A DNA stretch of 64,000 nt from positions 57,625 through 121,624 of IMG/VR virus record IMGVR_UViG_2904560550_000001. One strand, 5' to 3'. A program made the translations under genes and the position numbers. The notes under the pieces are model-generated. The model searched no databases. It was not told the origin of the DNA and worked only from the letters and a program-made list of their open reading frames with translations. Within the stretch, counting starts at the first letter, position 1. Each line of letters starts with the position of its first letter. This stretch comes from a virus. Taxonomy: Duplodnaviria; Caudoviricetes. Below, piece after piece: positions 2,395-19,140 of the stretch.

Positions 2395-2479
2395 TATACT
2401 AAAGTTACAAAAAAAGTAAGGAAATAAAATTTCCAGATGTAATTTAAAGCGCACATTACAATAAAAGGAGAGAGAATAT

Positions 2480-2671
2480 ATGAAAGATTATTCAGTGAAA
2501 TTTTACGATCAGGACTATATGCTATTATCTGAAATAATTAAAGCCGAAAGTTTAGAAGACCTAAAAATGAGCGCGGATAGCAAAGCGAAAACCTTGATGG
2601 AAGAGAATGGAGTTAATGAGATCACTTGGACAGCAAGTGACGTTGTACTTGAAGGAAAGGTTATAGAGTAG
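2480..2671 (+). CDS. Hypothetical phage protein
   Basis: AAAGGAG RBS; TTGATC-17-TATACT promoter at about 2372-2400. Confidence 0.7.
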   Translation: MKDYSVKFYDQDYMLLSEIIKAESLEDLKMSADSKAKTLMEENGVNEITWTASDVVLEGKVIE

Positions 2672-2702
2672 GAACACAAACTTAATTAGAGGAGGAAAGG
2701 CA

Positions 2703-3080
2703 ATGATAAAACAAGAAGAAATCATCTTAATGGAAGCACTTCTAAGAGATGTAAGAGGTAACTGGTCAGATGAAATTATATCCAGGTTGACAGAGGCAAA
2801 CCGGATTGCCAAGAGTCACAATTTTGAAGCAATAGAGAAAAAAACTCGTGGAATTATAGACGCAGAAATGACAGGAAACAATAAGAATTTTGACGGGAGA
2901 TGTTTTAGATCAGACTACAAATCAGGCGGTTATGAAGGCTTGAGCGAATTTTATGGTGGAGATGGCAATTTTAAATTGAAAGCCAGATCAAAAGAATTTT
3001 TGCAAAAAGTGGACGAGCTGATGACAAATGACTGGCTTATCTTTCCGGATTTTGACGAATACAATCAATGCAATGTTTAA
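2703..3080 (+). CDS. Hypothetical phage protein
   Basis: ORF with GAGGAGG RBS. Confidence 0.75.
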   Translation: MIKQEEIILMEALLRDVRGNWSDEIISRLTEANRIAKSHNFEAIEKKTRGIIDAEMTGNNKNFDGRCFRSDYKSGGYEGLSEFYGGDGNFKLKARSKEFLQKVDELMTNDWLIFPDFDEYNQCNV

Positions 3081-3117
3081 ATAAAATCGTACTTTCATAG
3101 GGAAAAGAGGAAAAGAA

Positions 3118-3432
3118 ATGTTGCCAACTTCTTTAAAAGCAAAAGTTCAGCGAATTTTATTAAAAGGTAGCTTTAAAAAATCTGAGAGCTCTAAAAGCGG
3201 AGTAAAAGGACTAAGCAATATTTCTGCGGGTTTTACTTTTGCCAAGACGTTTGACGACGATTACTGCCTCTATTATACAGCTGGTAATATGGCCTTCCGG
3301 GGAATGCCCAACGAAGAAAAGGATAATCAAACAGAAAAAATGTATCAGTTCTTATTGGATCAGGGCCTTCAAAAAAACATTGAACTGATAGAGTTTAGAA
3401 ATCAAAAAGCAATTTTGTTGAAAGTGGAGTAA
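3118..3432 (+). CDS. Hypothetical phage protein
   Basis: ORF with RBS, flanked by junction palindromes. Confidence 0.7.
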   Translation: MLPTSLKAKVQRILLKGSFKKSESSKSGVKGLSNISAGFTFAKTFDDDYCLYYTAGNMAFRGMPNEEKDNQTEKMYQFLLDQGLQKNIELIEFRNQKAILLKVE

Positions 3433-3496
3433 TTTCGCAGCACTTTGAGAAACAGCATAAAATCATTCTTTTATAAAAATAGAAAGGGTTAAATTT

Positions 3497-4042
3497 ATGA
3501 ACTATAAAGGCAATATAAATACTGATTTCTTATTGGCATTAAATGAATGTATTAACTTTCTTCCAGATGATCACAACAACTTAAATTGGACTATTGTGTT
3601 TTATGATCTACAGAACTTCATTAAGGATCATAAAGATAATAAAGTGTATCCAATAGAACACTTTAATAAAATACTAGATATAAATTCACCTGCTTCAGGA
3701 TCTACAGTGAGTCAAATTAAACAAATCCATCTGTTCCTGTTTAAATATGAATTTAATCAAGGTGAATTAATTAAGTTAATCGGAAACATTTATCATGAAA
3801 TAAGACATGCATGGCAATACTCCAATAATATTTATGAAATTGAAAACGAAATCTCTCCTCACGAGGATTTTGAAGCTTATATTAAACAGCCTTGGGAATT
3901 AGATGCATATAAGTTTCAGTTGAAATATATGAGAGAACATTATAACAAGATCTTAGAAATTTTTAATCTGAAAGACTATGTTGTCCCTGTTTACAATTTT
4001 CACGAAAATATAATGAAATTAATTGACGAGGAAATAATCTAA
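3497..4042 (+). CDS. Zincin-like metallopeptidase domain protein
   Basis: HEIRH (HExxH) and downstream PWELDA. Confidence 0.7.
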   Translation: MNYKGNINTDFLLALNECINFLPDDHNNLNWTIVFYDLQNFIKDHKDNKVYPIEHFNKILDINSPASGSTVSQIKQIHLFLFKYEFNQGELIKLIGNIYHEIRHAWQYSNNIYEIENEISPHEDFEAYIKQPWELDAYKFQLKYMREHYNKILEIFNLKDYVVPVYNFHENIMKLIDEEII

Positions 4043-4060
4043 CTGAAAAAGAGCATTAAA

Positions 4061-4243
4061 CTAAATGCTCTTCTTCATACCACATCTACGACACTCACGT
4101 AAAAACACACCACTTTTCACTGAACTCTTGAATAAAGTGTAATCGCAGTTGTCACAGCGACCATATTTAACATCGGGATGCTCCTTATAATCATACACAA
4201 CTGTTACATCGTAGCCGTTAGTCTCTAAATCTTTCTCTTCCAT
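4061..4243 (-). CDS. Small zinc-ribbon protein
   Basis: CDNC...CRRC; AGGTG RBS. Confidence 0.7.
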   Translation of the reverse strand: MEEKDLETNGYDVTVVYDYKEHPDVKYGRCDNCDYTLFKSSVKSGVFLRECRRCGMKKSI

Positions 4244-4313
4244 TAAATTTCACCTACACAAAGTATTTAACACTACTATAATACCAGACGATGTATATAA
4301 GGAGGGTTTTAAT

Positions 4314-4565
4314 TTGATTGGAATAGCATATTTCTTAATACTCTGGCTGGGTGTTGGCTTTCTAACGGGATTTAAGGCCTTATTTGTTGATCAGGTTTAT
4401 GATGAAGAGTTTAAGCAGGAATTGATTGATTCATTTTCACCAGGTATGGAGCAGAATATGATTGAACTGTTCTTTAAGAATAAAATAAATATCATGGTGT
4501 TTTACATATTAATTGGATTGCTGCCACTGACCATAAAAATTGCTGGTCTGCTGAAGAGGCGTTAG
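4314..4565 (+). CDS. yopE: YopE-like membrane protein
   Basis: Two hydrophobic segments; recalled similarity and synteny. Confidence 0.75.
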   Translation: MIGIAYFLILWLGVGFLTGFKALFVDQVYDEEFKQELIDSFSPGMEQNMIELFFKNKINIMVFYILIGLLPLTIKIAGLLKRR

Positions 4566-4567
4566 CT

Positions 4568-4783
4568 ATGCCGGTTATCGATACCTTTTTTGTTATTCAA
4601 TTTGAAAATGATGATTACTTCAAGTCATTTAAATTAGATGGAAGTGGTTATAAGACATCTAAGGGGCTTCATGGAGCTTCTAAATTCACTACAATGTCAG
4701 AAGCTTTAGCGATCGCAAATGAGCTGCATACGGAGTTTAAAGCCACTTCTGCCATAAGACAAATTGAAGTTATTACTAGGTGA
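4568..4783 (+). CDS. yopF: YopF-like protein
   Basis: Recalled similarity and synteny. Confidence 0.7.
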   Translation: MPVIDTFFVIQFENDDYFKSFKLDGSGYKTSKGLHGASKFTTMSEALAIANELHTEFKATSAIRQIEVITR

Positions 4784-4794
4784 GGAGTGTTCAG

Positions 4795-4926
4795 GTGTAC
4801 TGGATTGAATGGATTGAGGATGGGGAGAAGAAAAGTATTGTTGCGGATGGCTGGGTTGAATGGGCCACAATCCTTGAAGACCTTTATCAACAGAGATTTG
4901 AGTATGTTGATTGGAAACAGCTTTAA
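4795..4926 (+). CDS. yopG: YopG-like 43-aa protein (not in ORF track)
   Basis: GTG start after GAGGAG; MYWIEWIEDGEKKSIVADGWVEW... Confidence 0.7.
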   Translation: MYWIEWIEDGEKKSIVADGWVEWATILEDLYQQRFEYVDWKQL

Positions 4927-5144
4927 ATAAATAGTGAGATCATGAAATAATCATCTTATAGACGTATTGAAAAGTTTATGGATTTACTTAATTGGGCCTA
5001 GATTGGTGAATAGTAAAACAGGTCATATAAAATATATAGTAAGGTAAAGTATGTGCTCGAGATCAAGAATTTTGCTGAGGAAATTACCCCCTATTTAAAG
5101 AGATCGCTTATGGCCCTGTAATTTTTTATACAAGAACTTTTAGG

Positions 5145-6923
5145 ATGGAGAGCTTAATGACAAATTTTATTGATGAATTAAAACTAACAGAATCAAATAT
5201 TGAAGAATTTAAATGGGATCTCTCAGCCCCTTTTTTTAAATTGAAGTCAAAATTAGAAGAACAGGATGTGGATAGAAAAAGCATAGCTGATATAGAAAAG
5301 GACATATTGGTATTAGACCTAGAAACAGACCGGGAAACCAAAGGATTTTTTACGCATAGGTATGTCATTACAGAAGAACAAGGGGGACATAATGTATACC
5401 CTAATATTGAAGAACAATTTACAGAAGAAATTAAAACATATTTGATAAGACGAACAATGGAAGTAAGAAACCCCATATTAAAAGCTAGATATAATGATGT
5501 CCTATGGTCAATTTATAAAAGTTTTCCTAACACAAAAGATGCAATAGAAGGATATTTAGAGTGTTCACGGATTTTTTATGATAAAGAATGGATCTGGCAA
5601 ATTTCGAAGACAATCGATAGAGCATTGCAAATTGCAATCGGTATAAAGGACAGCGAAAAAGTATTATTGGTTATCGAGGTATATAAAGATATTTTAACAA
5701 GGGCACATGAAGAAAATAAGTTAATAATATGTATTGACTTAGCTAATTCATTGATGAATTATCATAAGGCATTAAAAAATTATGGTTTTAATTTCGTCGA
5801 ATGTGTAATTCCTTTTTTATTGGTTAGTGAGGATCATTCCGCAGATAAAAGTGAATTTGAATTGAAAAGAAAAGCACTAAGTGTAATTGTTTCAATTTAT
5901 AATGCTGAAAAGAATAGAGAATTGGAAGAAGAGCATTTAATTGAAATAGCAAAATCATATGAGAGTGAGGGTGATTGGAATTCAGTATATGAGGAAAACT
6001 ATATTATCGCAAGTGAAAATTATGAAGAGAGTATGAATATACTCTTACATTTAGGAAACCAAAAAACTAAGGTAGATGCATTAAAAGTTAAGATACAGGA
6101 AAGCAATAAAAAGGGTATCTCGAATTTTCTGAAATTTGAACAGGAAATTAAAATCCCTACAGCAGTTCTTGAACCGTACTTTAAAATTTATAATGAGATT
6201 TCTGATTCAGAAACATTCTTAGCTAACTTGAGTATTGATTCAAATTTATTGCCTGATTGGCAAAAAAGCATAGAGTTTGCACGATCTATGGAAAATGAAA
6301 ACCCCCTCTTGCATTTAATGCCAAAAAAAATTTTCAGTGGAAATATTGCGATTAAAGAAGTAAAGAGTGATCAAGAAAAGCTCAACTATGAAGCAATTAG
6401 GAGTTTTACCTTAAGATATCAAACAAGTGCTAATATTTTCATAATAAAACTTTTCGAAATTTTCAAGTGTAAATTTCAATACCCGGATAAAGAAATTATT
6501 GACTTTCTTTATCAGAGTGAATTAATTGAAAAAAGAATACCTATTATTGGTCTCGGAATTAAAAGATATTTTGAAGAAGACTATATTGGCGCGTGCCATT
6601 TGCTTATATTTCAAATAGAAGGCATTCTAAGAGAAATGTTAGGGTTATTAAAGTTGCCTACGTTTTCATATAGAAACAACGAAATGAAAGAACGGATGCT
6701 TAGCGATTGCTTAGATACTTTGAAAAATAAAGGAATAGAAAAGAATTTCATAAAATTCCTCCAAATTTTTCTTTGTGAAAATATCGGTGATAATTTGCGA
6801 AATGAATTTGCTCATGGCATTGCAGATATTGCTAAAATGAACCAAGTCAATGCTTCTTTATTATTATTGACATACCTAAAGCTTTCACAATATAGGTTGA
6901 CAGAAGTTAAACCCATGGAGTGA
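5145..6923 (+). CDS. Helical-repeat protein with C-terminal HEPN-like (DUF4209-type) domain
   Basis: LLIFQIEGILRE and NLRNEFAHG (Rx4H) motifs. Confidence 0.7.
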   Translation: MESLMTNFIDELKLTESNIEEFKWDLSAPFFKLKSKLEEQDVDRKSIADIEKDILVLDLETDRETKGFFTHRYVITEEQGGHNVYPNIEEQFTEEIKTYLIRRTMEVRNPILKARYNDVLWSIYKSFPNTKDAIEGYLECSRIFYDKEWIWQISKTIDRALQIAIGIKDSEKVLLVIEVYKDILTRAHEENKLIICIDLANSLMNYHKALKNYGFNFVECVIPFLLVSEDHSADKSEFELKRKALSVIVSIYNAEKNRELEEEHLIEIAKSYESEGDWNSVYEENYIIASENYEESMNILLHLGNQKTKVDALKVKIQESNKKGISNFLKFEQEIKIPTAVLEPYFKIYNEISDSETFLANLSIDSNLLPDWQKSIEFARSMENENPLLHLMPKKIFSGNIAIKEVKSDQEKLNYEAIRSFTLRYQTSANIFIIKLFEIFKCKFQYPDKEIIDFLYQSELIEKRIPIIGLGIKRYFEEDYIGACHLLIFQIEGILREMLGLLKLPTFSYRNNEMKERMLSDCLDTLKNKGIEKNFIKFLQIFLCENIGDNLRNEFAHGIADIAKMNQVNASLLLLTYLKLSQYRLTEVKPME

Positions 6924-7516
6924 GATATGTGGAAGATTTCTTTAATTTTAAATTAAAAATAAATGCTAAACCAAGTATGTTTCACGGCAAGACAATTAGA
7001 AAGAATCTAACCGATACTCTTTGGCGTGAAAAAATAAGAGTTGCAATACTTGAGAGAAAAAATTATAGCTGTATGATTTGTAATTACATGCCCCCTAAGT
7101 GATTTAAGCAGACTTCATGTACATGAAGTAGAAGAATATGATTCTGAAAACATAGATCTAAACTTGATATGCGTAAACTGCCATTCTTTTCATCACTTCA
7201 AACGATCTCAATTGGTTCTAACTAAAGATCAATTAGCTAATCTAGCCAAACATTTTTGTAATGTGAACAATTGTACGATGGAGGATTATGAACAGTATAA
7301 GCAATTCCTAAAAGAAAAACGTTTAAAAGAGATGAAGGAAGTAATCAATCGAGAATTGCAACTTAAAAAGCCGTTAGGGAAAAGCGCAACACTGAAATAA
7401 AGTTTGCTATCTTAGGTGATATACCTTATAAAGATTTAGTTATTGAGCGCTTAAAGAAAAAAAGCGTATATTACGAGTACGACAATTTACAAAATAAAGA
7501 CAAGGGTTTATCCTAA
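6920..7516 (+). pseudogene. HNH endonuclease with two frameshifts
   Basis: CMIC, then a shift to LHVHEV...LICVNCHSFHH; second shift near 7395 continues KFAILGDIPY. Confidence 0.7.
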
Positions 7517-7531
7517 AAACCTTGTCTTTAT
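7494..7531 (+). terminator. Inverted repeat or terminator
   Basis: ATAAAGACAAGG...CCTTGTCTTTAT. Confidence 0.6.
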
Positions 7532-7597
7532 AAAATACGAATTTTAATCAGATAAGGATCCTTCAAAAAATAATTAGAATAAAAATAAAATAAATAC

Positions 7598-7626
7598 TTG
7601 TAATTCTGACAACTCTAATGTATATT
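7598..7626 (+). promoter_or_regulatory. aimR promoter
   Basis: TTGTAA-17bp-TATATT with extended TG, just downstream of a repeat copy. Confidence 0.65.
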
Positions 7627-7667
7627 ATAAACAAGGGAACATTAGTTGGGAAGGGGTGGAGTAACCA

Positions 7668-8807
7668 ATGAATCTTAAGCAGAAGATTAAGAATGAATGT
7701 GAAAAAGACAACCAGCTCGCAGCGAAACTCTCAAAAATAGCAGGGTACGAAAAGGTTAATGGTTTTTACAAATTCATCAACACCCCAGAGAAAGAAATGG
7801 ACAACTTAGGCGGTTTAATTAAGATTGTTAAAAACTTGTTTCCTGATAATGAAGAGCAGCTTCTAAGTGATTACTTCTTAACATTGGATCCCAACAAAAA
7901 ATGTGCTAGACAATCTGTTGAATACTCTGATATAAATCAATGGGATTCATTAACTGACAAGATTATTTTAAATTTAAGTAACTCAAAAAACACAACAAGT
8001 CAAGAATGGGGCAACATCTACAACATACATAGAAAGCTATATAAAAACCAAATCTCAATACCAGAAGCAATAAGAGAGTGTGGAAGATGTAAAGCTCCAG
8101 AAATGTCATTTTTCTCAGATGCAATGCTAATGTACAAATACTTGAATATTGGTGAGTTTGGATTGATGAAAAGCACTTTAACACTTTTAGATTTTAGAAG
8201 CTTGCCAGAAGGATTTATAAAGGATTCGTACAAAAGTAGAGTGTCAATGTTACAAGCGAATATAAGCTTAAATGAAAATAATTTAATCGAAGCAAGAAAA
8301 CATTCAAATATTGCAATAATGCAGTCCAATGTGAACCGAATATGTTTCTTTGCGCATCTGACAATAGGGAACACCCTAATTTTTGAAAACTATGAAGAAG
8401 CTATGCTAGCGTATGTTGAGGCAAAGAAGTATGTTCTTAATGATATTCATAAAGAAATGCTAAATGGTGCTCTTTGCTTCTTGGCTAACGTATGGAACAA
8501 GGAAAATTTATGGGTTAACTATGAATCGAATGATATCAAATATCAGCAGCTTAGGGCTTTTTATTACATAAAAAATAATAATCTCGACAAGGCAAACGAA
8601 TTATTGGAAAGCTTATCAAATAGGGATCAAGATGAAAATGAATTAGGATTTTATTTTTATTATAAAGGTTTGATATCAAAACAAAAATCTGATTTTTATA
8701 AATCAATAACATATTTCAAAAAATCAGATGATAAATATTTTATCCAATTGACAATAATGGAGCTCGAAAAATTAGGCTGTGATCCGGAGCTGCTAAATTT
8801 AATTTAG
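7668..8807 (+). CDS. aimR: Arbitrium receptor AimR (RRNPP family)
   Basis: 379 aa, N-terminal HTH plus TPR-like helices, followed by aimP and aimX. Confidence 0.95.
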   Translation: MNLKQKIKNECEKDNQLAAKLSKIAGYEKVNGFYKFINTPEKEMDNLGGLIKIVKNLFPDNEEQLLSDYFLTLDPNKKCARQSVEYSDINQWDSLTDKIILNLSNSKNTTSQEWGNIYNIHRKLYKNQISIPEAIRECGRCKAPEMSFFSDAMLMYKYLNIGEFGLMKSTLTLLDFRSLPEGFIKDSYKSRVSMLQANISLNENNLIEARKHSNIAIMQSNVNRICFFAHLTIGNTLIFENYEEAMLAYVEAKKYVLNDIHKEMLNGALCFLANVWNKENLWVNYESNDIKYQQLRAFYYIKNNNLDKANELLESLSNRDQDENELGFYFYYKGLISKQKSDFYKSITYFKKSDDKYFIQLTIMELEKLGCDPELLNLI

Positions 8808-8836
8808 AATTTAACACTTGAAAGGAGGTGAATTTA

Positions 8837-8968
8837 ATGAAGAAATTTATTTTCGGCACAGCCATTTTAGCAGCTTTAGCAATTTCATTCATTGCAGGTC
8901 AACATTCAGTTAATACGGCATCAGCTTCTGATGAGATCTCTGTAGCAAGTGCAATTCGGGGAGCTTAA
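8837..8968 (+). CDS. aimP: Arbitrium pro-peptide AimP, mature peptide SAIRGA
   Basis: AAAGGAGGTG RBS; MKKFIFGTAILAALAISFIAGQHSVNTASASDEISVASAIRGA. Confidence 0.97.
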   Translation: MKKFIFGTAILAALAISFIAGQHSVNTASASDEISVASAIRGA

Positions 8969-9000
8969 TACTACAACAGGATACTACATAATCAATGGTT

Positions 9001-9033
9001 AGACGTTTGATCCAGTGGATCAGGCGTCTTTTC
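9001..9033 (+). terminator. Terminator between aimP and aimX
   Basis: AGACGTTTGATCC-AGT-GGATCAGGCGTCT followed by a T tract. Confidence 0.85.
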
Positions 9034-9046
9034 TAATTTTAAGAGA

Positions 9047-9083
9047 ATGTTCCAGAAATTCATAATATAAAAAACAAGAACAT
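9047..9083. promoter_or_regulatory. AimR operator
   Basis: ATGTTC-25bp-GAACAT, the 6-bp inverted repeat with 25-bp spacer known for AimR sites. Confidence 0.85.
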
Positions 9084-9095
9084 GGGGGAATTAAA

Positions 9096-9251
9096 ATGAA
9101 AAAGCATTTCGGACAAGCACTTTCTTATGAGGATATGGCCAAAGGTTACGAAGAAATGGCAGCTATTAATCTTGTAATTTCCCAGGAAGACAATCATCTT
9201 GAAAATGAAGCAGAAATGGTTAGATCAAAATATAAAGCAAAGGTATCCTAA
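9096..9251 (+). CDS. aimX: AimX, 51 aa, mimic of the MazE C-terminus
   Basis: MKKHFGQALSYEDMAKGYEEMAAINLVISQEDNHLENEAEMVRSKYKAKVS. Confidence 0.92.
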   Translation: MKKHFGQALSYEDMAKGYEEMAAINLVISQEDNHLENEAEMVRSKYKAKVS

Positions 9252-9335
9252 TGAAGATTAAAGACAAATCAGCAGACATTTTAACACATACATAGGGGAT
9301 GTGTTATTTGTCGTGAATAAAAATAAAATAAATCA

Positions 9336-9364
9336 TTGCATATTATTATGGTAACATATATAAT
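9336..9364 (+). promoter_or_regulatory. sro operon promoter
   Basis: TTGCAT-17bp-TATAAT after a repeat copy. Confidence 0.75.
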
Positions 9365-9400
9365 GAAGTTACAAGATGAACGTTGTTGGGAGATGAAACA

Positions 9401-9613
9401 ATGGAAACTACCAGTGCCACTCAAAAAGAAGAGTTGAAGATTACATCATTAAGACAATATCAATACATAAAACAACTAAAGAACTTCACACGAGTCAATC
9501 TCCACCTAGAGGATCCAGATGTGTTTACACCTAATAATGTAACTACAATGAGAAAAAATCATAAAGAATATAACCTCATTAAAGAACAAAAGAATTCTAT
9601 AAAATGCATTTAA
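9401..9613 (+). CDS. First gene of sro operon (SroA position)
   Basis: GGGAG RBS; synteny. Confidence 0.65.
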   Translation: METTSATQKEELKITSLRQYQYIKQLKNFTRVNLHLEDPDVFTPNNVTTMRKNHKEYNLIKEQKNSIKCI

Positions 9614-9627
9614 GGAGTAAAATTAAA

Positions 9628-9858
9628 ATGAATAATAAATATTACACAGAAGAAAACAAGGCTAAAGTTTGGAAAAAGCATATGATCGTTTTAAAATTTC
9701 TAGAGCAGCCTGAGATAGCAGTTGCTTATAATGAGTTCTTACGAAGAGAAGCAACAAGTGATGAATGGGTTGGGTTCGAAGAGGAGCTTTATGAGGAATT
9801 GACGGGGATGCCAATTATAAACGTCTGTAAGGACGAGAGGGTAAATGTCCTAAACTGA
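9628..9858 (+). CDS. phi3T_93/SroB-like protein
   Basis: AAGGAG RBS; MNNKYYTEENKAKVWKKH recalled from phi3T; synteny. Confidence 0.65.
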   Translation: MNNKYYTEENKAKVWKKHMIVLKFLEQPEIAVAYNEFLRREATSDEWVGFEEELYEELTGMPIINVCKDERVNVLN

Positions 9859-9896
9859 ATTTTATTATAGGATAAAAATAAATTAGGTGTGATAAA

Positions 9897-10061
9897 ATGA
9901 ATACAGACATCTTAATTAACGCTCTTAAAGAATACGACATGTTAAAGCAAATGGAAATCTGTAACGCCAATATAATGCTGCTGAGTAATATTCAAGGTGA
10001 AAATGAATGGATTGTTGCGTGGAAAGAATTTGATCAATACTTAATGAAAAAAATGATATGA
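9897..10061 (+). CDS. 54-aa protein at the SroC position (not in ORF track)
   Basis: AGGTG RBS; MNTDILINALKEYDMLKQMEIC... Confidence 0.65.
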   Translation: MNTDILINALKEYDMLKQMEICNANIMLLSNIQGENEWIVAWKEFDQYLMKKMI

Positions 10062-10070
10062 GGTGTCATT

Positions 10071-11129
10071 ATGGAAGCTCAAAAGAAAGCGTCAACACTA
10101 AGGGATTATTCAATATTCAACAACATAAATAGGTGGTTTGATGAATTAGATTTAAGAAACAGGGATCAAAAAACTGGAGAAATTGAAAAGTCTAATACTA
10201 GAGCCACGTATGAAAGGCATATAAGAGAGTTTTTCAACCACTATGCTGCCAAGGATATTGAATATTTAACTGAGAGTGACCTGGCGATCAAGAAGAGTGA
10301 CCTGTATGATTATCGAAGCCATTTGGCTAAAAATAAAAGTAACTCCAATTCAACAATTAACAACAAGATTGCCGCACTGAAAAGTATGATTAAGTATCTT
10401 GAATCTGAACATGAGTGTGATGCATCTGTATTTAATTTTAGGCCTCTTCCAACAGAAAAGAACCCAGCAGGCTCTTTTGAAGGAATATCTGAAGCTGATG
10501 AATTTGCTGAGGCAGCGTATGTTACTGAGCGGCAGAACAGATTAATGAAAAAGATGTTTATTTTGTTTAGTGCACGCACTGGAGGGCGTAAATCAGAGGT
10601 GCTTAGAGTTGGGTGGGATGATATTACTTATTCAGAAAAGCATCAATGCTATCTCGTCAACTTTAAAAAAACCAAGCAAAAAAAGGCTAGACCAGTTGGA
10701 ATTTCCACAGCTTTTTATGAAGAGTTGTTGCTGTTAAAGCAAGAGTATGGGGAGCATGAACTGTTATTTCATAAGTTAACAGTTGATTCAATACAGGATA
10801 TGTGGAATCGCGTATGTAGAGTTATGGGCATTCCAAAAGAAAGAAAGATAACTCCGCATAGTTTACGCAATACTGCAACAAACTTTTCTTACAGCGTTAA
10901 TGGTGATATTAAAAAAGTTGCAGCGTTCTCTGGTCACAGCAATATCAATGTTTTGAATGATCATTATTTAAACAATGAAAGGGATTATTCTCAAGATCCA
11001 GGGGTTTTGGTTGATCAAAAAGAAGACATGTCCTTTTTAGATGATGTTACCTTAGAGCAATATAAAGAATTCTTTTTAAAATCAGACATGTATATACAGA
11101 GTAAACTTAAAATGTTTTTGAACAAGTGA
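10071..11129 (+). CDS. yopP: Tyrosine recombinase YopP/SroD
   Basis: SAM-like N-domain; TGGRKSE, KTK, HSLR, GH and HY catalytic motifs. Confidence 0.9.
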   Translation: MEAQKKASTLRDYSIFNNINRWFDELDLRNRDQKTGEIEKSNTRATYERHIREFFNHYAAKDIEYLTESDLAIKKSDLYDYRSHLAKNKSNSNSTINNKIAALKSMIKYLESEHECDASVFNFRPLPTEKNPAGSFEGISEADEFAEAAYVTERQNRLMKKMFILFSARTGGRKSEVLRVGWDDITYSEKHQCYLVNFKKTKQKKARPVGISTAFYEELLLLKQEYGEHELLFHKLTVDSIQDMWNRVCRVMGIPKERKITPHSLRNTATNFSYSVNGDIKKVAAFSGHSNINVLNDHYLNNERDYSQDPGVLVDQKEDMSFLDDVTLEQYKEFFLKSDMYIQSKLKMFLNK

Positions 11130-11205
11130 TACAAATAATCATATAAAAGCTTTACTTGCTTATGAAAATAATGATAAATTTAATATGATTATGTGAGGTG
11201 ATAAT

Positions 11206-12555
11206 GTGTCTGAAGTTTTGTTGACAACGGATAAACTTTATAAGTTAAAAACTGAAATAGAGGGAAGGATTATTGATATTAAAGATGATTCCAATATGGT
11301 GAAGGAATTAAAAGCTACGATGGCGGAAAAATACAAGGCCCTCCCTGGTTATATCCAAGAAATTTTAAATAATAATGATAATAACGTACAGCGTTTAAAC
11401 GAAAAAGAAGTGTACATTGTTTCAAAAGAGATGTATTCAATTCTCGGGGCGCCAGCTTTAGATCCGTCAAATTATTTTCCAACCAGATTGGCAAAAGAGC
11501 TTGAAGGTGGGAGAGTATTCGCCGGTGAAGAAGTAGTTAAGCTCCCATACAAGTTTAAAAATGTGATTAAAATCAAAGAGGATAACTATGTCACTTCCAT
11601 TACTGCCAAAGAACTTAGTGAGTTATATAATAGCTCCATCCTGCAGTACAATTACAACACTCAGCGTGAAGGAAAGTATATTAAAGGCAGTCTTATTCCT
11701 GTCCCTAAAACAAACCCTAAATCAGTTGATGAGATCAAAGAATTGTTTATCAAAGGTGATTTAATTGTATCAATGTTAACTTTTAACGCTCGTCTTGGAA
11801 CATCTGATGGTGATGAAGAAGTTGAATATGATCCAAGCACTCAAACCCTCACTGTAACACGCGGAACCTTATTAGATGCTCTAGATGGATACCATCGAAT
11901 TTCAGGTATTGTTAAGGCCATTGCTGAAGTCCCTGAATTGGATCAACCATTCATTTTAAATGTACTCAATTACGATGAAGAAAAGGCTAAGGTTCACTTT
12001 GCTCAAATGAACACAATAAACCCAGTTGAAAAATCCAGAATTGAAGAATTAGGGCAAAAACGGTATTCTTCAACAGTTGTCGAGCAGCTGAAATTTAAAA
12101 GTGAACTTAAAAATAAAATAAGCCCACAAAGTGAAATTGGTATCGATAGCAATTTTCTTGTGACATATTATACTTTATCCGAAGCTATAGACGATGCATT
12201 TGAGTTGAAATCTCGAAAAGATGCGTTGAAAATTGCGAAATACCTGGTCGACTTTTTTGATAACCTTTTTTATGCCTTCCCAGATGAATTTCTTGAAGAT
12301 GATTTATCGTCCATTAGAAAGCAATCATACATTAATCATAACGTAATGTTTTACGGTTATGTTTATTTGGCCAAGAAGATGAAGGAAAACAATGTAGAAC
12401 TAAACAAGCTTGAAAGTATCCTTAATACAATTGACTTTAGTAAGAGCGGAAGAGTGTTTGAAGAATTAGGAAGACGAAATAATGAAAATCAACTGAAGAC
12501 TGCTATGAAGAAGAAACTAAAGAGAATATTTTATGATGAAATTGCTGTTGTTTAA
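11206..12555 (+). CDS. yopQ: YopQ/SroE, ParB/DndB-like (DGQHR) domain
   Basis: LDGYHR motif; synteny. Confidence 0.85.
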
Positions 12556-12575
12556 AGCTTAAAGGAGAATTTAAT

Positions 12576-13559
12576 ATGAGTGAAATGTATAATGCTGAAT
12601 TGAAGGAAAAGTTTTTAGAGAAATACGAAAGTGAAGCAACAAGAAACCATTATTGGCTAAGGCTAAGGGATTTCTCAGCTACAGAAAAAATACTTCAAAA
12701 AGACATATTTAATTTTTCTTTGGAAGAGCTGCGTACGTTATTTTTAGATTTAGATAGCAAATCTATAGATTCACTAAGAGGAGCAAGAGCTGTAATTGGA
12801 CAATACACAACATGGGCAATGGAAAATGGCTTGGCAAACAGTAATATTAACAAAGTGTATCAGATACAGGATGGTGACCTAAAGCAGTTTATAGATAAAA
12901 ACAAAAAAACACTATTCACCAATAAAGAAGTAGAAGAGTATGTTGATTTTATGGTTAATTATCAGGATAAGGCCATGATACAGGCTATTTATGAAGGTAT
13001 AGATGGTTATCAGCATTCTGAGTTACTGAATTTAACAGGTGATGATTTACTCGATGATAACAAGGTGAAGCTGGTAGATGATAAACATGGTATAAGAATA
13101 ATTACTGTAAGTGATAAATGTTATGAGTTGCTTAAGCGTGCTAATGACCAAAGAACATATCATCTTAGCAATGGTTCTCCAGATAGTGGCCTTAAAAACA
13201 AATTTGCCACATTAGTTAAAAGCGAAAATATTTTTAGGCTAAAATATAAGAGTTCTAATCAGAGTATGAAAGCTGACAAATTTTTAGTTCACCGTTCTTT
13301 TAGTCAGTTTCAAAAATTTTTAGAAGAACCTTTCTTTACACCTAAAAATCTTATCAACTCAGGAAAGCTCAACATGGCGTATGAGATATATAAAGAGAAG
13401 GGTGAATTAAAAGTACCTGATTATAAAAAAATAACTCGACAATATGGATTCCTGAATGAAGACGCGGAGTTTAATTCACAATCACTGAGGAAAGTAGTGA
13501 ATATGGAGAACTTAGAAAAATATTGTATCAAGTCTGAAGTAATTGAGGCTAATTCTTAA
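12576..13559 (+). CDS. yopR: YopR/MrpR/SroF master repressor (degenerate tyrosine-recombinase fold)
   Basis: [11 protein letters not shown] start, EGIDG...SELLNL, no HxxR; synteny. Confidence 0.88.
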
Positions 13560-13577
13560 TCCCTGTTACAGGGATTA
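13557..13577 (+). terminator. Hairpin after yopR
   Basis: TAATCCCTG-TTA-CAGGGATTA. Confidence 0.7.
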
Positions 13578-13779
13578 ACTTTACATAACTTTTAGAGTAA
13601 AAATAAAAACAATGTGAATTAACTCGTGATATTTTTAGAAAAATATCAGGATTTTGTTCATATTTTTCAGAATTCGACAAAGTTAGACAGAGACAAATTT
13701 GTACATATGCAGTAAAATAGTTCTATACCCTGAAAAGGGTACAAGGAGGTTCGCTAGGCCAAACTCCCTAGCGTTTAAG

Positions 13780-14001
13780 TCAATGTTTGATTTTCCATTC
13801 ATAGAGATCTTCAATCGAACAGTTAAGTGCAATAGCAATGATTTTAGCCGTTTTTATATTCATGGAAGGTCTAAAGCCGTTTGCATAGTCACTTAATCTT
13901 TGCGTACTAATGCCTGTTCGCTTTGAAAGTTCTCCTAAGGACATTCCTCTACTTTCAAGGAGAATGGATATCAAACATTGTCCGATTTCAACCTCAAGCA
14001 T
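13780..14001 (-). CDS. yopS: YopS XRE-family HTH regulator
   Basis: GGAGG RBS before MLEVEIG; HTH_3 pattern. Confidence 0.85.
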   Translation of the reverse strand: MLEVEIGQCLISILLESRGMSLGELSKRTGISTQRLSDYANGFRPSMNIKTAKIIAIALNCSIEDLYEWKIKH

Positions 14002-14078
14002 CGGACAACCTCCTGTTATAGTATTGCTTATCATACTATATCAATTCTTTCCAAGTTTTTAAATGAAAGAAAAAAGAT

Positions 14079-14137
14079 TTGCCACTAACTAGGTAAAAGG
14101 TTATAATTAAGTCAACAAAAAAGGGAACGTAAGTTCG
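14079..14137 (+). promoter_or_regulatory. sigmaA promoter with downstream LexA (Cheo) box
   Basis: TTGCCA-17bp-TATAAT; GAAC-GTAA-GTTC at 14125-14136. Confidence 0.75.
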
Positions 14138-14166
14138 GTTAATTACTACCAGAGAGAGGGAAACGT

Positions 14167-14466
14167 ATGTCAGAAAAGGATTATTTTATTCAAGGGGAGC
14201 TGTGCATTCCTTTTTTCGGCAGAATAAAAGCCAAGAATGAAGAGGAAGCACTTTTGTTCGCATATCAATCAATTAAAAAGAAATTAAGAAATAAAACAGG
14301 AAAAATGGGGTTTCTTCAAAAAGATCAAGAAAAATATGAGGCACTATTTGATGTAGACATCATGTGTACAGAGGATGCTGAAATAACAACCTCTTATGCC
14401 GAAGAAATAGACGATTCGTTTGAAAATGAAGGCTATAAATCTTCTCAGCTGTTATCAATAAAATAA
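14167..14466 (+). CDS. Hypothetical phage protein
   Basis: ORF with RBS. Confidence 0.7.
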   Translation: MSEKDYFIQGELCIPFFGRIKAKNEEEALLFAYQSIKKKLRNKTGKMGFLQKDQEKYEALFDVDIMCTEDAEITTSYAEEIDDSFENEGYKSSQLLSIK

Positions 14467-14540
14467 ATGCACATACACATCTTGTCAGTCATCATGAGAC
14501 ATAAAAAATTGGTGACTTTTTAGTCAGACTGGAGCATACA

Positions 14541-14786
14541 ATGGATTTTAATCTTGAAATTGACTTGAAAGACATTATGAGATCAGTTTCCATGAGTGTT
14601 GGTTCTAAGAACATACAAAGTGGAGATTACTACATAGAGATTATTTTTAAAAACAATGGGGATTGTTTGAGGATTAGAATGGATCATGCTTCAGTTTTAG
14701 AATTTAGAGACAAAATAAATGAAACTCTTTGGAAACTGGACGGCATGAAGACGTTTATGAAGACAGCAGCTTTACAGTATGAGTAA
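14541..14786 (+). CDS. Hypothetical phage protein
   Basis: GGAG RBS. Confidence 0.65.
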   Translation: MDFNLEIDLKDIMRSVSMSVGSKNIQSGDYYIEIIFKNNGDCLRIRMDHASVLEFRDKINETLWKLDGMKTFMKTAALQYE

Positions 14787-14894
14787 AGCTGATTTTTTTA
14801 AAATTATTTAGAGTAAAAATAAAATAAGTATTTACAACATTTGGTTAAGGTTATATAATCGAATTAGAATAAGGAAAGGAGATAGCTTTAATTA

Positions 14895-15119
14895 TTGATT
14901 AATGAACCAACTAATAATCAAATAAGAACAATGGTTTTAAGGAAATATGCAAAGCTCTTAGCATCATGTGAAAGGTCTTTACGCAGCATAGATAATGGTG
15001 AAATCAGAATGGCAATTGGAGACTTGGATTTTGTTAAAGACAATTTAGAGGAAATACAATACATACTTCGTGATGTTGTGAATCAGCATGAATATATTGA
15101 GGGTAAAAATAAAATGTAA
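14895..15119 (+). CDS. Hypothetical phage protein
   Basis: AAAGGAG RBS; promoter TTTACA-17-TATAAT at 14831-14859. Confidence 0.7.
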   Translation: MINEPTNNQIRTMVLRKYAKLLASCERSLRSIDNGEIRMAIGDLDFVKDNLEEIQYILRDVVNQHEYIEGKNKM

Positions 15120-15151
15120 GTTTTATCAAGAAAGGTAAAGGGGGAAGAACA

Positions 15152-15427
15152 ATGAAATTCTATGAAATCAATGATCCATATTACGCGCTTATCAAAGCGA
15201 AAGACGAGGTGGATGCTGAAAGGATTTACAACGAGCAGATTGCTGACACGGACGATTACGACAATTTTCAAGACGATGAAATCCGAGAAGTGGAACGAGA
15301 CTATGCGCTCATTATGTATTCACAAACGAAGGGTGAAGATGGGGAGTTTATGTCTTACACCTATATTTCAGGAACTTTCAACAATCCGGACATTGAAGTC
15401 CTTATCATGGACGGTTCGCTCCTATGA
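15152..15427 (+). CDS. YopY-like protein
   Basis: MKFYEINDPYYALIKA...MDGSLL, recalled similarity. Confidence 0.7.
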   Translation: MKFYEINDPYYALIKAKDEVDAERIYNEQIADTDDYDNFQDDEIREVERDYALIMYSQTKGEDGEFMSYTYISGTFNNPDIEVLIMDGSLL

Positions 15428-15846
15428 ACACCGCATACAGAGTGTGGGACGGCGAGAAGATGCATTATTGGGATGATGGTGAGCTGAGTCTTATTATCTC
15501 GGGTAGAGAATGGAGGGTGTATCGCAATATCGTTGGAGCTCTTTGTCCCATCCGTATTGCGTCTAGTACTCAAAAAAATACGTCTCTCATGTGGGGCACA
15601 GGTCTAAAGGACAAGAAAGGGAAGGATATATACCAGAAGGATATCACTGAGGAATCGTATGTGAATCCTTTACTCAAAGAAAATGTTATTGACCGTTATG
15701 TTATTGAGAGACGGAAAGGTATCGACAGAATGAACCATGTCAGCAAAAAGAGCCAATTGGATAGGTTCTTATGGTATCGACTTGATGAAATCGAGGTTGT
15801 CGGAAACATTTTTGAAACTCCTGAGTTATTGGAGGACGCGGAGTGA
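15424..15846 (+). CDS. yopX: YopX family protein
   Basis: YRVWD, WGTGLKDKKGKDIY, EVVGNIFETPELL. Confidence 0.9.
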   Translation: MNTAYRVWDGEKMHYWDDGELSLIISGREWRVYRNIVGALCPIRIASSTQKNTSLMWGTGLKDKKGKDIYQKDITEESYVNPLLKENVIDRYVIERRKGIDRMNHVSKKSQLDRFLWYRLDEIEVVGNIFETPELLEDAE

Positions 15847-16029
15847 TGAAGACAAAAAAGAATCCGGCACGTGTTGTTGATACTAGAAATAATGCCACAT
15901 TGTTCACAGGGACAGAATGGGAATGCATGGAGTTCGCATTAAAGAATTATCCTCATGAAGAATTTCCCCATGTCTTGGTTGGTTTAAATGATGATGAGGA
16001 GGGCGTGCAGTGATGCGGGAGGAAGAAGA

Positions 16030-16212
16030 ATGACAGAAAACGAAGAGCTACAAGCAAGATGCATCGAATTGGAAACGCGTAACGAAGATTTAGCGCGGAC
16101 GATTCAGGAACAAAACAAAATGATCCGGGGGCAAAACTGGCGAATCATGTTTTTCGCCCTCTCTTGGGTCCTATATGGCGCTGTGAGTGCTGTGAATTAC
16201 TTTTGGGGGTGA
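16030..16212 (+). CDS. Coiled-coil protein with C-terminal transmembrane segment
   Basis: GGAGG RBS before MTENEEL. Confidence 0.65.
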   Translation: MTENEELQARCIELETRNEDLARTIQEQNKMIRGQNWRIMFFALSWVLYGAVSAVNYFWG

Positions 16213-16216
16213 CGGA

Positions 16217-16405
16217 ATGAACGAATACACCGAATGCCCGGAATGCGGGAACGACCAGATTATTGATTATGGGGAAATGGCGGTTGAGTATGAAATGTCA
16301 TTTAAAACAGGGAAGCTGCTGAAACGTAATAAAGAAGGGGAGTCTATATGGTGCGCGCAAAAGTGCCGTTGCGGCTGGGATAGTTATTCAGAAAAATATG
16401 AGTGA
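16217..16405 (+). CDS. Zinc-ribbon protein
   Basis: CPECG...CRCG. Confidence 0.7.
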   Translation: MNEYTECPECGNDQIIDYGEMAVEYEMSFKTGKLLKRNKEGESIWCAQKCRCGWDSYSEKYE

Positions 16406-16507
16406 GGTGTGCGCGGAGTGAACGACGGAATAATTGGCATTGTAGTATTAATACTCCTGTTGTGGGCGGTTATAGTTTGGTGGAGAAATTACTAAGGGAG
16501 GCGCGGA

Positions 16508-16711
16508 ATGAGCATTAATGCACGTACAATGGCATTCACTTATCATAGGGCACATCAAGAATGGAAGACGCTTGAAGATGCTATGATGATCGTTAATGAT
16601 CCTGATACAAAAAAGGGCATCGCTAAAGAAATTGAAAAAAGAAGACAGAACGCAAGTAAAATCGGGGAAAAGCTTGAACAATTTGAGGTTGATGTGGAGG
16701 ATGGACGATAG
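16508..16711 (+). CDS. Hypothetical phage protein
   Basis: GGGAGG RBS. Confidence 0.7.
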   Translation: MSINARTMAFTYHRAHQEWKTLEDAMMIVNDPDTKKGIAKEIEKRRQNASKIGEKLEQFEVDVEDGR

Positions 16712-16838
16712 AAAGGGAGGGGAATAAATTGACGAAAAGTGAAGGATGAAAAGTGACTATTGAGCTGTCTCATAAAATTAATCGAACCAAATAAAAGATG
16801 CATTTCATATTAAATGAGAATAGGGGGAGTAGTTAATA

Positions 16839-17075
16839 ATGGAGACAAAACACGGATTAAGTCAAGGACGGTTAAATGCAGCGAAAGATTATACTCGGAG
16901 TTTTGTGGAAAGGATCAATAAAATTGAGTTGATGTATCAGCTTTCTGTAAACAAAATGGTGGATGGAGAAAAAGCTGAGAATTTTATTTCAGGAAATATT
17001 AAAGAAATCGAGCGTGATTGGGAATGCTTTAAGAGCTATATTGCACAAAGAGGCGATATGAGAGAATTAGATTAA
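16839..17075 (+). CDS. Hypothetical phage protein
   Basis: GGGGGAG RBS; flanked by palindromes. Confidence 0.75.
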   Translation: METKHGLSQGRLNAAKDYTRSFVERINKIELMYQLSVNKMVDGEKAENFISGNIKEIERDWECFKSYIAQRGDMRELD

Positions 17076-17108
17076 AAGTAAAATTTAAAAGAGAAAGGGA
17101 GTTTAAAT

Positions 17109-17705
17109 ATGCCAACAGGATATACAAGCGAAATTTATCAGGGAGAAGAGGTATCCCCTAAGGACTTTTTATTGACATGTTCACGGGCTTTTGGTGCAAC
17201 CATTTCAATGAGGGAAGAACCTTTAAATGCTGAAATACCTGAGTTTGAACCGAGTAGCTACTATAAAGATGCTTTAACCAAGGAGTTATCAGAGTTAGAC
17301 AGGTATACAAATATGTCACTAAAAGAAGCGGAGATGGCTGTAGACGCCCTGTATCAAAATCAATTAAATGAATATAAGAAAATCTCTGATAACCAAAAGC
17401 AACTCCTAAAACGGTATACGAAATTATTAGAATGTATCAAAGAATGGGAGCCACCTACAAGTGAGCACATAAGTCTTAAAGAGTTTGCAATTGAGCAGTT
17501 AAAAGGCAGTATTAAAACTGATTGTAATCCCAGTCTCATTAGAGAGGTCGTACGACATGATCCTGAAGAATGGTTGAAAATGAAAATTGAGAAGACAAGG
17601 GATAATATCGAATGGTATAAACAAATGCATCAGGAAGAAGTTGAGAGAGTAAACAGACGAAACGAATGGATAAAGAATCTAAGGGAAAGTATGATTGGGA
17701 TTTAA
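17109..17705 (+). CDS. Hypothetical phage protein (MPTGYT start)
   Basis: GGGAG RBS; flanked by palindromes. Confidence 0.8.
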   Translation: MPTGYTSEIYQGEEVSPKDFLLTCSRAFGATISMREEPLNAEIPEFEPSSYYKDALTKELSELDRYTNMSLKEAEMAVDALYQNQLNEYKKISDNQKQLLKRYTKLLECIKEWEPPTSEHISLKEFAIEQLKGSIKTDCNPSLIREVVRHDPEEWLKMKIEKTRDNIEWYKQMHQEEVERVNRRNEWIKNLRESMIGI

Positions 17706-17784
17706 TAAAAAGACTGTTTTAAAGAAAGGATGAGAACCGATAGTCAATTTCAAAAAACTTAGTGATCCTGAATATATTAAGCAG

Positions 17785-18411
17785 ATGGAAATTGAGAGAA
17801 ATGAACGTGAGCGGATATATCAAGAAAAGGAGACTATAAGAAAGAAAACGGTGTGCTTCACTGGTCATAGGCCGAACAAATTGGGTGGATACGATATGAA
17901 AAATCCAACAATGCTTAAACTCAAAGATAAGCTACTTGAAGTCATTGAAGAATTAATCACTAAGGAAAACAAGTCCAGGTTCATAACTGGTGGAGCGTTA
18001 GGAACTGATCAGGCTGCTTGCTGGTGTGTACATATTCTAAAGAAGAAAAACCCACATATCAAAAACATAATTGCTGTACCTTTCAAAGAACAAGATAAAG
18101 TGTGGTCTGAAGAACAAAAAATGTGGTACAAACGAATGCTTGAAGTTGCAGATGAGATTGTTAATGTTGAAGAATTGGAGAAATATAAAGTTAGTGGAGT
18201 TGTACCAGGTGAGTTTTCACCGGCTAAAATGCAAAAACGAAATGAATACATGATTGACCACAGTGAAGTGGTAGTAGCCGTTTATGATGGTAGTAAAAGT
18301 GGGACAAGGAACTGTCTGAATTACGCTAGGAAAACATACTTAGGCCATCAAATTTGGAGGCTGCATCCGAAATGTGATTTTGAATTGGATATAAGCTATA
18401 CGCCTGGATGA
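17785..18411 (+). CDS. SLOG/YpsA (DUF1273) family protein, YoqJ-like; possible ATA start at 17740
   Basis: FTGHRP, GGALGTD, RNEYMID and SGT motifs. Confidence 0.85.
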   Translation: MEIERNERERIYQEKETIRKKTVCFTGHRPNKLGGYDMKNPTMLKLKDKLLEVIEELITKENKSRFITGGALGTDQAACWCVHILKKKNPHIKNIIAVPFKEQDKVWSEEQKMWYKRMLEVADEIVNVEELEKYKVSGVVPGEFSPAKMQKRNEYMIDHSEVVVAVYDGSKSGTRNCLNYARKTYLGHQIWRLHPKCDFELDISYTPG

Positions 18412-18424
18412 GGAGGAATATAAC

Positions 18425-18649
18425 ATGAATGAGTTTAAAATTGTGAATTTAGATGGAGTTAATTGGGGATCGCATAATGACGAAACTTTAGGTTTCAAAG
18501 AATTGATTACAGGAAGAACGACCGCAGCTGGCGATGTTGTTAATGTTGAAAGACGCGACGATTGTCCACTTCCTCTAAGGAAGAACCAATTTTGCATAAC
18601 ATTTACCAAAGAAATTGAGTTGTTTCTTGGAGAACCATTCACCCAATAA
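18425..18649 (+). CDS. Hypothetical phage protein
   Basis: GAGGAGG RBS. Confidence 0.65.
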   Translation: MNEFKIVNLDGVNWGSHNDETLGFKELITGRTTAAGDVVNVERRDDCPLPLRKNQFCITFTKEIELFLGEPFTQ

Positions 18650-18885
18650 GAATGCAAATCATTATTCGGATCAGATTTTAGCTGCAAAACATTAAAATAA
18701 AAGGATTATTTCATTGTAAGGAGGAAGGCACATAGGTTATTTAAAGCACATAATTGATACAGCCTGGTTTAACTTAGTTTGGTTTAGATGGCATCTTGGA
18801 GCGGACATAAGCGTATTTGACGGCTGCGGATGGTATACATATAAATATTTAAAGAGTAAAAATAAAATAAATGGAGGTTATAAGG

Positions 18886-19101: not shown

Positions 19102-19140
19102 AACAAGAAAAAAGGAGCTAAAAAGCCCCTACCTTTAAGC

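Follow-up and report, generated by a model that had tools for sequence, protein, structure and literature searches.

The locus considered here raises the question of what a tyrosine recombinase with an intact active site does inside a phage repression operon. We analysed the last 64 kb (hereafter the window) of a 121,624-base virus record, corresponding to record positions 57625-121624, in which a homologue of the sro operon gene sroD (yopP in phage SPbeta) lies about 67.7 kb into the record. A sequence-only reading of the window had taken the open reading frame (ORF) at 10071-11129 for the tyrosine recombinase YopP/SroD with its R-K-H-R-H-Y set in place, had noted that the neighbouring YopR has lost this set and that a serine integrase lies at 61900, and had proposed that YopP, its substrate unexplained, binds or recombines a series of N6 palindromes and so ties gene shuffling to the lysis-lysogeny switch. 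SPbeta-type arbitrium phages serve as a model of how viruses make decisions, and their master repressor SroF is a recombinase fold without chemistry; sroD, two genes upstream of sroF, keeps the residues of that chemistry almost invariantly in a family with over a thousand representatives. The account we favour is that SroD is a simple Xer/Cre-type recombinase of an SPbeta-like phage that acts on phage DNA as an accessory of the lysogeny module, most likely by sequence-specific binding and probably with cleavage.

The protein matched the Pfam family Phage_integrase (PF00589) over residues 154-302 (E = 5.7e-14; 52.7 bits against a cut-off of 27.1), Phage_int_SAM_1 (E = 8.8e-06) and PHROG 1, 'integrase' (E = 9e-33). 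By tblastn it was 77.6% identical to phi3T_95 and 31.3% to SPbeta YopP (NP_046638) across 96-97% of its length, and both of these share its operon position, its domain set and its C-terminal tail. The DNA of window positions 9000-14500 was about 74% identical to Bacillus phage phi3T, and the gene order (aimR, aimP, small ORFs, sroD, sroE, sroF and a yopS-like gene) is that of SPbeta yopK-S and of phi3T_89 to _98. Since gene order matches SPbeta and phi3T and identity to phi3T_95 and YopP extends over the full length, we assign the ORF as the SroD/YopP orthologue of an SPbeta-like arbitrium phage, a new member of an already known family. An AlphaFold2 model (predicted local distance difference test score 93.0, predicted template modelling score 0.86) has the two-domain C-clamp fold of core-binding and catalytic domains. 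Its best Foldseek matches were DNA-bound active recombinases (Tn1549 Int, XerH-difH, XerA, Cre and lambda Int; template modelling scores about 0.5-0.6), and a profile of the SroD family searched against the PDB found XerA (5hxy, 2.9e-24) and XerD (5.8e-18) as well as an archaeal XerC-like protein, IntI4, XerH and Tn1549 Int.

The active site of SroD is complete and probably functional, judging from its alignment. The strings GRKSE, KTK, HSLR, GH and HY are all present, the codons of the six catalytic residues were checked, and the family profile places the ArgI, Lys, HisII/ArgII, HisIII and Tyr motifs in register with those of XerA (5hxy). A phmmer search of 1.84 billion representatives recovered 1,184 relatives at E <= 0.001, 269 of them at E <= 1e-10. 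From these we built a family alignment of 147 representatives with pairwise identities of <=50%, consisting of the window SroD, 141 near-full-length sequences among the 150 listed phmmer matches (nine short ones were excluded) and five other matches. ArgI and HisII were kept in 147/147, Lys (the K202 position) in 145/147 and Tyr in 144/147, and the HisIII position held His in 141/147 and Trp in 4/147. Mean column identity was only 22%, and five of the six catalytic positions fell among the 16 invariant or near-invariant columns. A family-specific helical tail of about 50 residues beyond the Tyr was likewise filled in 147/147. The near-invariance of the active site argues for retained chemistry, and we infer that SroD makes use of it.

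The contrast with the neighbouring SroF (MrpR, or YopR) is instructive, as the two share a fold family and an operon. The SroD profile aligned to SroF with an hhalign probability of 94%, pairing 'RTGGRKSE' with 'GIDGYQHSE' and 'PHSLRNT' with 'PKNLINS'. The SroF family thus lacks ArgI, HisII and ArgII, with Tyr-Gln-His in place of Arg-Lys-Ser and 'KNLI' in place of 'HSLR', whereas SroD keeps the whole catalytic set. This agrees with the loss of recombinase residues published for MrpR (PMC10516654, in the parts available) and with its MrpR domains in Pfam. The repressor role alone therefore does not need these residues.

SroD is not the integrase. It has no arm-binding domain (Pfam matched the core-binding and catalytic domains only), its gene lies at about 67.7 kb of the 121.6-kb record, and a large serine recombinase near the record end, at 61900-63609, takes that role. 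The recombinase is confirmed at the family level by its Resolvase, Recombinase and Zn_ribbon_recom domains, and SPbeta itself integrates with the serine recombinase SprA, according to the accessible parts of PMC8612738. The sequence-only reading was therefore sound in its description of the locus, from the identity and catalytic residues of YopP to the dead YopR and the separate integrase.

SroD appears to be made as part of the repression module. In the sections available to us, published work places yopP in a yopMNOPQR operon (PMC8612738), renamed sroABCDEF (PMC10769878), reports yopP, in one of three data sets, as one of five conserved genes with activity in a dormant prophage (preprint 10.1101/2021.11.22.469490), and uses 'sroDEF' as a signature of SPbeta-like phages (preprint 10.1101/2025.11.23.689978). 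The passages seen of a further preprint (10.1101/2025.11.27.690993) discuss SroF and SroE and leave SroD unmentioned. In the window, sroD was covered by RNA-library contigs in 4/4 runs, from four different studies; stretches without contig cover in run X2 carry no weight here. One run (X12) yielded a single 4,036-nt contig spanning 9395-13430. It opens at the start of the first small sro ORF and reaches almost to the end of sroF, which fits co-transcription of sroA to sroF. The sroD-E-F triad is also present in Geobacillus virus E3 and one Staphylococcus SPbeta-like phage, and was found at 49/78 loci retrieved via SroD and 73/79 loci retrieved via SroE. Two of the loci have disrupted neighbours, which may be real or assembly errors: sroE is apparently split into two ORFs at L035 (on the same contig as L122), and sroF is apparently split at L135.

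Brady et al. 2023 reportedly call SroD an 'auxiliary repressor'. The accessible passages of the sro and SPbeta literature describe YopP/SroD solely as an XerC-type domain protein and sro operon member and nowhere name a DNA substrate, in keeping with the earlier remark that YopP is known mainly through its operon. We propose that the sro operon supplies SroD along with SroE and SroF, and that SroD would serve the lysogeny module as a sequence-specific DNA-binding, probably DNA-cleaving accessory, with the paralogous-fold SroF as the catalytically dead master repressor of the same module and the N6 palindromes as one candidate DNA target of SroD. Its role in lysogeny control is in this sense inferred. 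Should SroD cut or clamp phage DNA, an enzyme would stand beside the repressors in the lysogeny module.

Several observations weigh against this proposal. The ArgII position is always basic but holds Arg in only 84/147 representatives and Lys in 63/147; within a set of 12 aligned sequences, Lys occurs in SPbeta YopP and four others, whereas the window SroD and phi3T_95 have Arg. Full recombinase activity may hence be unneeded or absent in much of the family. A search beside sroD in 14 lineages turned up no conserved inverted repeat of the lox or dif type. In proviruses G004-G010 (loci L179-L182 and L186-L208) sroD lies 20-46 kb from an adjacent sroE-sroF pair, and phages PBC2 and Tsamsa carry SroD-like and SroF-like genes at distant positions and lack SroE, so the function of SroD is separable from the operon. 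Finally, RNA-library contigs cannot prove a single transcript, and carry-over of DNA into the libraries is possible. The conserved active site, the Arg/Lys dimorphism at ArgII and the restriction of the palindromes to SroD/SroF-bearing phages, described below, are useful leads.

The palindromes are a striking feature of the genome. The window has 19 copies of TAAAA-N6-TTTTA where 1.09 are expected, with 0/100 shuffles reaching 19, and the whole record has 25; the window thus holds 19/25 and is the half that also holds 25 SroF boxes. The N6 spacing is strict: this genome, SPbeta and phi3T have 25, 34 and 30 copies, and each other spacing from 0 to 14 gives 0-4. The arms extend imperfectly to about 11 bp, as TCTnnATAAAA-N6-TTTTATnnAGA, for a layout of roughly 11-6-11. 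Outer position 6 pairs in 23/30, 23/34 and, in this genome, 13/25 palindromes, outer positions 2 and 3 pair in about a fifth (12-26%), and the spacer ends (positions 1 and 6) show no covariation. This pattern indicates a conserved double-stranded DNA site that would be read by a symmetric protein. A hairpin or RNA structure was rejected, given the partial pairing of the outer arms and the absence of covariation at spacer positions 1 and 6. We also rejected a SigmaA promoter, as the flanks, inspected by eye, show no consistent -35 element 17 bp upstream of TAAAAT. In PBC2 and Tsamsa, TTGATA and TACAGT are 14 bp apart. The palindromes sit immediately upstream of ribosome-binding sites, in gene gaps that are short (median 70-83 bp); the shortness of the gaps can explain this closeness, which is not taken as evidence of function.

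One tentative alternative, which we regard as unlikely, is that SroD dimers bind the dispersed TCTnnATAAAA-N6-TTTTATnnAGA sites. In the early region they would be roadblocks or auxiliary operators there, or else they would cleave and rejoin DNA; in the cleaving version, they would nick and close DNA at specific sites, or recombine sites whose spacers match on co-infecting relatives. The layout speaks for it: 11-6-11 with strict N6 is typical of the core site of a simple tyrosine recombinase, and the dif sites of Xer enzymes are 28 bp in length with this same arrangement. So does the lack of covariation in outer arms and spacer, which points to a double-stranded site for a symmetric protein. 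Whole-genome counts, given as motif over reversed control, were 25/3 in this genome, 34/2 in SPbeta, 30/2 in phi3T, 30/7 in E3, 23/1 in PBC2, 23/3 in Tsamsa and 14/1 in G009, an IMG/VR provirus of 138,080 bases. The palindromes are also phage-specific: a 4.5-Mb Bacillus genome, its prophage included, holds 72 against 40 control sites, and in a 9.1-Mb assembly titled Streptomyces sp., 24/25 lie on one contig, the one that bears this phage. That contig, of 133,358 bases, carries a 98%-identical copy of the phage (L020) and looks foreign, being low in GC within a high-GC assembly. As a separate observation, the G009 provirus (L202-L208) has 16 copies of TGAAA-N6-TTTCA beside its 14 of TAAAA-N6-TTTTA, and its half-site appears to tolerate, or to have shifted to, G at position 2.

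Across genomes, the palindrome tends to co-occur with the SroD-like gene. Of the genomes with such a gene, 7/9 were motif-rich, compared with 0/5 Bacillus phages without it (one-sided Fisher test, p = 0.010), a generous test given that the genomes are phylogenetically dependent and comprise only about four motif-rich lineages. The five phages lacking the gene, taken as those outside the 49 tblastn-positive records, had 0 (SPO1), 1 (SP-10), 1 (phiNIT1), 0 (0305phi8-36) and 0 (SPP1) palindromes. Six loci with SroE had no sroD nearby, and when five whole contigs were searched, 4/5 carried a full-length SroD-like gene elsewhere; the fifth, without one, is a 49%-complete fragment. Counts limited to the surroundings of sroD-only loci turned out not to represent the picture given by entire contigs. 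Among the genomes examined, a strongly enriched, strictly spaced palindrome restricted to SroD/SroF-bearing phages offers a concrete candidate target for SroD; should SroD not act on it, this genome-wide signal of these large phages would still lack an explanation.

The palindromes also keep company with the operators of SroF, being densest in the genome half where these boxes occur. The window contains 25 copies of AGRRTAAAAATAAAAT, allowing one mismatch, against 0.19 expected, which we identify as SroF/MrpR operators (SPBRE) because the reverse complement of the published 26-bp phi3T SroF box contains AAGAATAAAAATAAAAT. Of the 19 window palindromes, 7 have a box no more than 45 bp away, and three offsets recur among them (+17, -10 and ±45). 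At 15100-15125, 20757-20782 and 43091-43116 the 3' end of the box is the left arm of the palindrome (offset -10), and at 54-86 and 40924-40956 the right outer arm of the palindrome runs into the 5' end of the box (offset +17). At these composite sites SroF and the palindrome binder would overlap. As to SroF itself, chromatin affinity purification sequencing in SPbeta found its peaks at SPBRE-bearing promoter regions, with ten genes named and the motif drawn from 9 peaks; the 34 SPbeta palindromes far outnumber these (PMC10516654, as far as accessible). SroE is not the common binder, since PBC2 and Tsamsa are motif-rich and have no SroE. We also rejected YonK (63 aa, encoded outside the window). 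A tblastn phyletic profile found YonK and a 3D-domain ORF at 38851-39576 in 6/6 motif-rich and 0/2 motif-poor genomes, but the Pfam YonK model matches the motif-poor G008. The 3D-domain ORF, the only other one with this profile, encodes 241 aa with the domain at its C terminus (Pfam, 2.2e-13); it contains SroF boxes at 38870 and 39212 and the palindrome at 39002, and on account of these its 5' part is probably non-coding. In PBC2 (32705) and Tsamsa (34809), a palindrome lies just upstream of the SroF-like gene.

Against a role of SroD at the palindromes stand several results. Proviruses G008 and G010 have SroD-, SroE- and SroF-like genes and yet only 5 palindromes against 4 control sites each, and a search of both for a replacement found no other dominant palindrome. 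Loci with an apparently split (L137, L148) or truncated (L138) sroD keep their palindromes (11, 5 and 6, respectively, per ~21 kb; 18.5 kb for L148). Co-occurrence is confounded by shared ancestry, and SroF-like genes are distributed exactly as SroD-like ones in 9/9 genomes. Half-sites 11 bp apart, centre to centre, would equally fit a helix-turn-helix dimer, for example the YopS-like protein at 13780-14034. The proposal of the sequence-only reading that YopP binds or recombines the palindromes gains from their layout and co-occurrence and loses from G008, G010 and the split or truncated genes. All told, we consider the link between SroD and the palindromes doubtful.

The spacers bear on what SroD could do there. 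Strand exchange by tyrosine recombinases requires matching spacers. In this genome 25/25 differ, so productive exchange between sites within it is not expected, and 59 distinct spacers were found among 89 sites in three genomes. If SroD is the enzyme of these palindromes, nicking-closing or a roadblock role is accordingly favoured over classical recombination. It is a similarly slim prospect that SroD is the enzyme of some 25-35 dispersed 11-6-11 intergenic sites, where it would act by nicking-closing or as a covalent roadblock, with exchange only between co-infecting relatives whose orthologous junctions have a spacer in common. Were this true, SroD would link DNA transactions across the whole genome, and now and then the exchange of modules, with the lysis-lysogeny switch, and an active recombinase would be paired with a dead one, SroF, on overlapping sites.

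The proposed connection to gene shuffling is weak. On the positive side, some orthologous palindromes share the whole 16-mer across the window phage, SPbeta and phi3T, and one phi3T palindrome looks as if an SPbeta site had contributed its left flank and the following SPbeta site its spacer. Ends of BLAST segments fell within 25 bp of 6-10 palindromes, compared with about 0.8-1.0 for random positions. When gene gaps with a palindrome were compared with other gaps, breakpoints occurred in 6/22 vs 29/158, 8/22 vs 36/158, 10/27 vs 27/171, 9/27 vs 31/171, 7/25 vs 38/170 and 10/25 vs 34/170, that is, in 27-40% of palindrome gaps against 16-23% of others. This is an enrichment of 1.4-3.1-fold as odds ratios, with p < 0.05 in 2/6 comparisons, in gaps that are about twice as long as those without a palindrome. 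In addition, 15/16 unique recombination sites of phi3Ts-SPbeta hybrids from laboratory evolution lay in homologous regions (preprint 10.1101/2020.05.06.055103, read in the parts available).

A second alternative, which we think improbable, is that SroD is an Xer/Cre-like housekeeping recombinase acting at one dedicated site, for multimer resolution or for circularisation after injection, with the sro operon serving only for its expression. Its closest solved or curated relatives are indeed XerA, XerC, XerD, XerH and Cre, it lacks an arm-binding domain as Xer and Cre do, its active site is strongly conserved, and its gene is unlinked from sroE-sroF in several lineages (G004-G010). With the Xer enzymes (XerA 5hxy, XerD 1a0p, XerH-difH 5jk0; Foldseek probability 1.00) it shares the two-domain fold and the full R-K-H-R-H-Y set, and the 28-bp 11-6-11 sites of those enzymes have the layout of the window palindromes. 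It differs from them in its extra conserved tail of ~50 aa, in being phage-encoded within a repressor operon, and in its scores against the NCBIfam Xer equivalogs, all of which are far below their cut-offs (XerA 73 of 220 bits, XerC 50.4 of 335, XerD 41.9 of 330). SroD therefore resembles Xer yet is not an Xer enzyme. Cre of phage P1 is, like SroD, a phage-encoded simple tyrosine recombinase that stands apart from chromosomal integration and is a Foldseek match, but is 11-12% identical to SroD in structural alignment and has one defined 13-8-13 site beside its gene.

That no conserved lox- or dif-like site was found beside sroD, as noted above, tells against a single-site role. The best arms there matched at 7-10 of 11 positions in the 14 lineages (10 in one, 9 in one), and none were common between distant lineages; instead of one dif-like site, there are many dispersed 11-6-11-like palindromes. 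In the window, the gap between sroD and sroE holds an imperfect 11-7-11 palindrome at 11165-11193, AAATAATGATA-AATTTAA-TATGATTATGT, with arms matching at 9/11 (8/11 in the phi3T counterpart), which taken alone is not clearly above chance in AT-rich DNA and is absent from more distant lineages. The accessible literature passages assign no housekeeping single-site role to SroD.

A third alternative, very improbable, is that SroD no longer uses its chemistry and has a purely structural part as a partner, perhaps of SroF or SroE, in DNA binding, with a conserved pocket that only grips a backbone phosphate. For it, Lys replaces ArgII in the 63/147 representatives, SPbeta YopP among them, SroD-like and SroF-like genes occur together in 9/9 genomes, and the available text of a preprint (10.1101/2025.11.27.690993) has the paralogous-fold SroF binding its asymmetric 24-26-bp box as a monomeric repressor without catalysis. 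Against it, Tyr (144/147), ArgI and HisII (both 147/147) and an always basic ArgII position persist in SroD, and the SroF family shows how quickly such residues are lost once unneeded.

Table 1 Coordinates of sroD, its catalytic codons, neighbouring genes and repeated sites in the window.
Feature	Position	Strand	Remarks
sroD/yopP homologue	10071..11129	+	ATG start, 352 aa; N-terminal SAM-like core-binding domain, catalytic domain, C-terminal tail of ~50 aa
Stretch with the six catalytic codons	10587..10967	+	codon positions checked, aligned to XerA motifs
ArgI R173	10587-10589	+	within GGRKSE
Lys K202	10674-10676	+	within KKTKQKK
HisII H263	10857-10859	+	within HSLR
ArgII R266	10866-10868	+	within HSLR
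HisIII H289	10935-10937	+	within GH
Tyr Y299	10965-10967	+	within HY
aimR (arbitrium receptor)	7668..8807	+	Pfam AimR, E 1.2e-96
aimP-like ORF, 46 aa	8828..8968	+	directly 3' of aimR; by position only, as aimP/yopL in phi3T and SPbeta
Three small ORFs at sroA/sroB/sroC positions	9383-9613, 9604-9858, 9897-10061	+	by position against phi3T_92-94
sroE/yopQ homologue, 449 aa	11206..12555	+	DndB/ParB-like; Pfam DndB E 2.7e-16; phrog_5732 E 7e-148
sroF/yopR/mrpR homologue	12576..13559	+	recombinase-fold master repressor without catalytic residues; Pfam MrpR_N_CB, MrpR_C_cat; hhalign
yopS-like Cro/C1-type helix-turn-helix protein, 84 aa	13780..14034	-	divergent; Pfam HTH_26, HTH_3; position of yopS and phi3T_98
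Large serine recombinase, 569 aa	61900..63609	+	SprA-type integrase candidate; Pfam Resolvase, Recombinase, Zn_ribbon_recom
TAAAA-N6-TTTTA, 19 copies	54..60327		proposed candidate substrate; starts 54, 3458, 7531, 15110, 17706, 19487, 19928, 20767, 23141, 25583, 25777, 28441, 39002, 40924, 43101, 44134, 45160, 52544, 60312
AGRRTAAAAATAAAAT, up to 1 mismatch, 25 copies	71..60554	+	24 on the + strand; counterpart of the published SroF/MrpR operator (SPBRE, phi3T box)

The three small ORFs at the sroA-C positions gave zero matches in Pfam or PHROG. Two further repeats were seen in the window. Positions 43441-43524 consist of two tandem 42-nt copies that are 90% alike. Within an AimX-like ORF at 9096-9251, an 82-nt stretch (9135-9216) is 73% identical to 46393-46474, 37 kb downstream, in line with the annotation of phi3T AimX as similar to SPbeta YosL.

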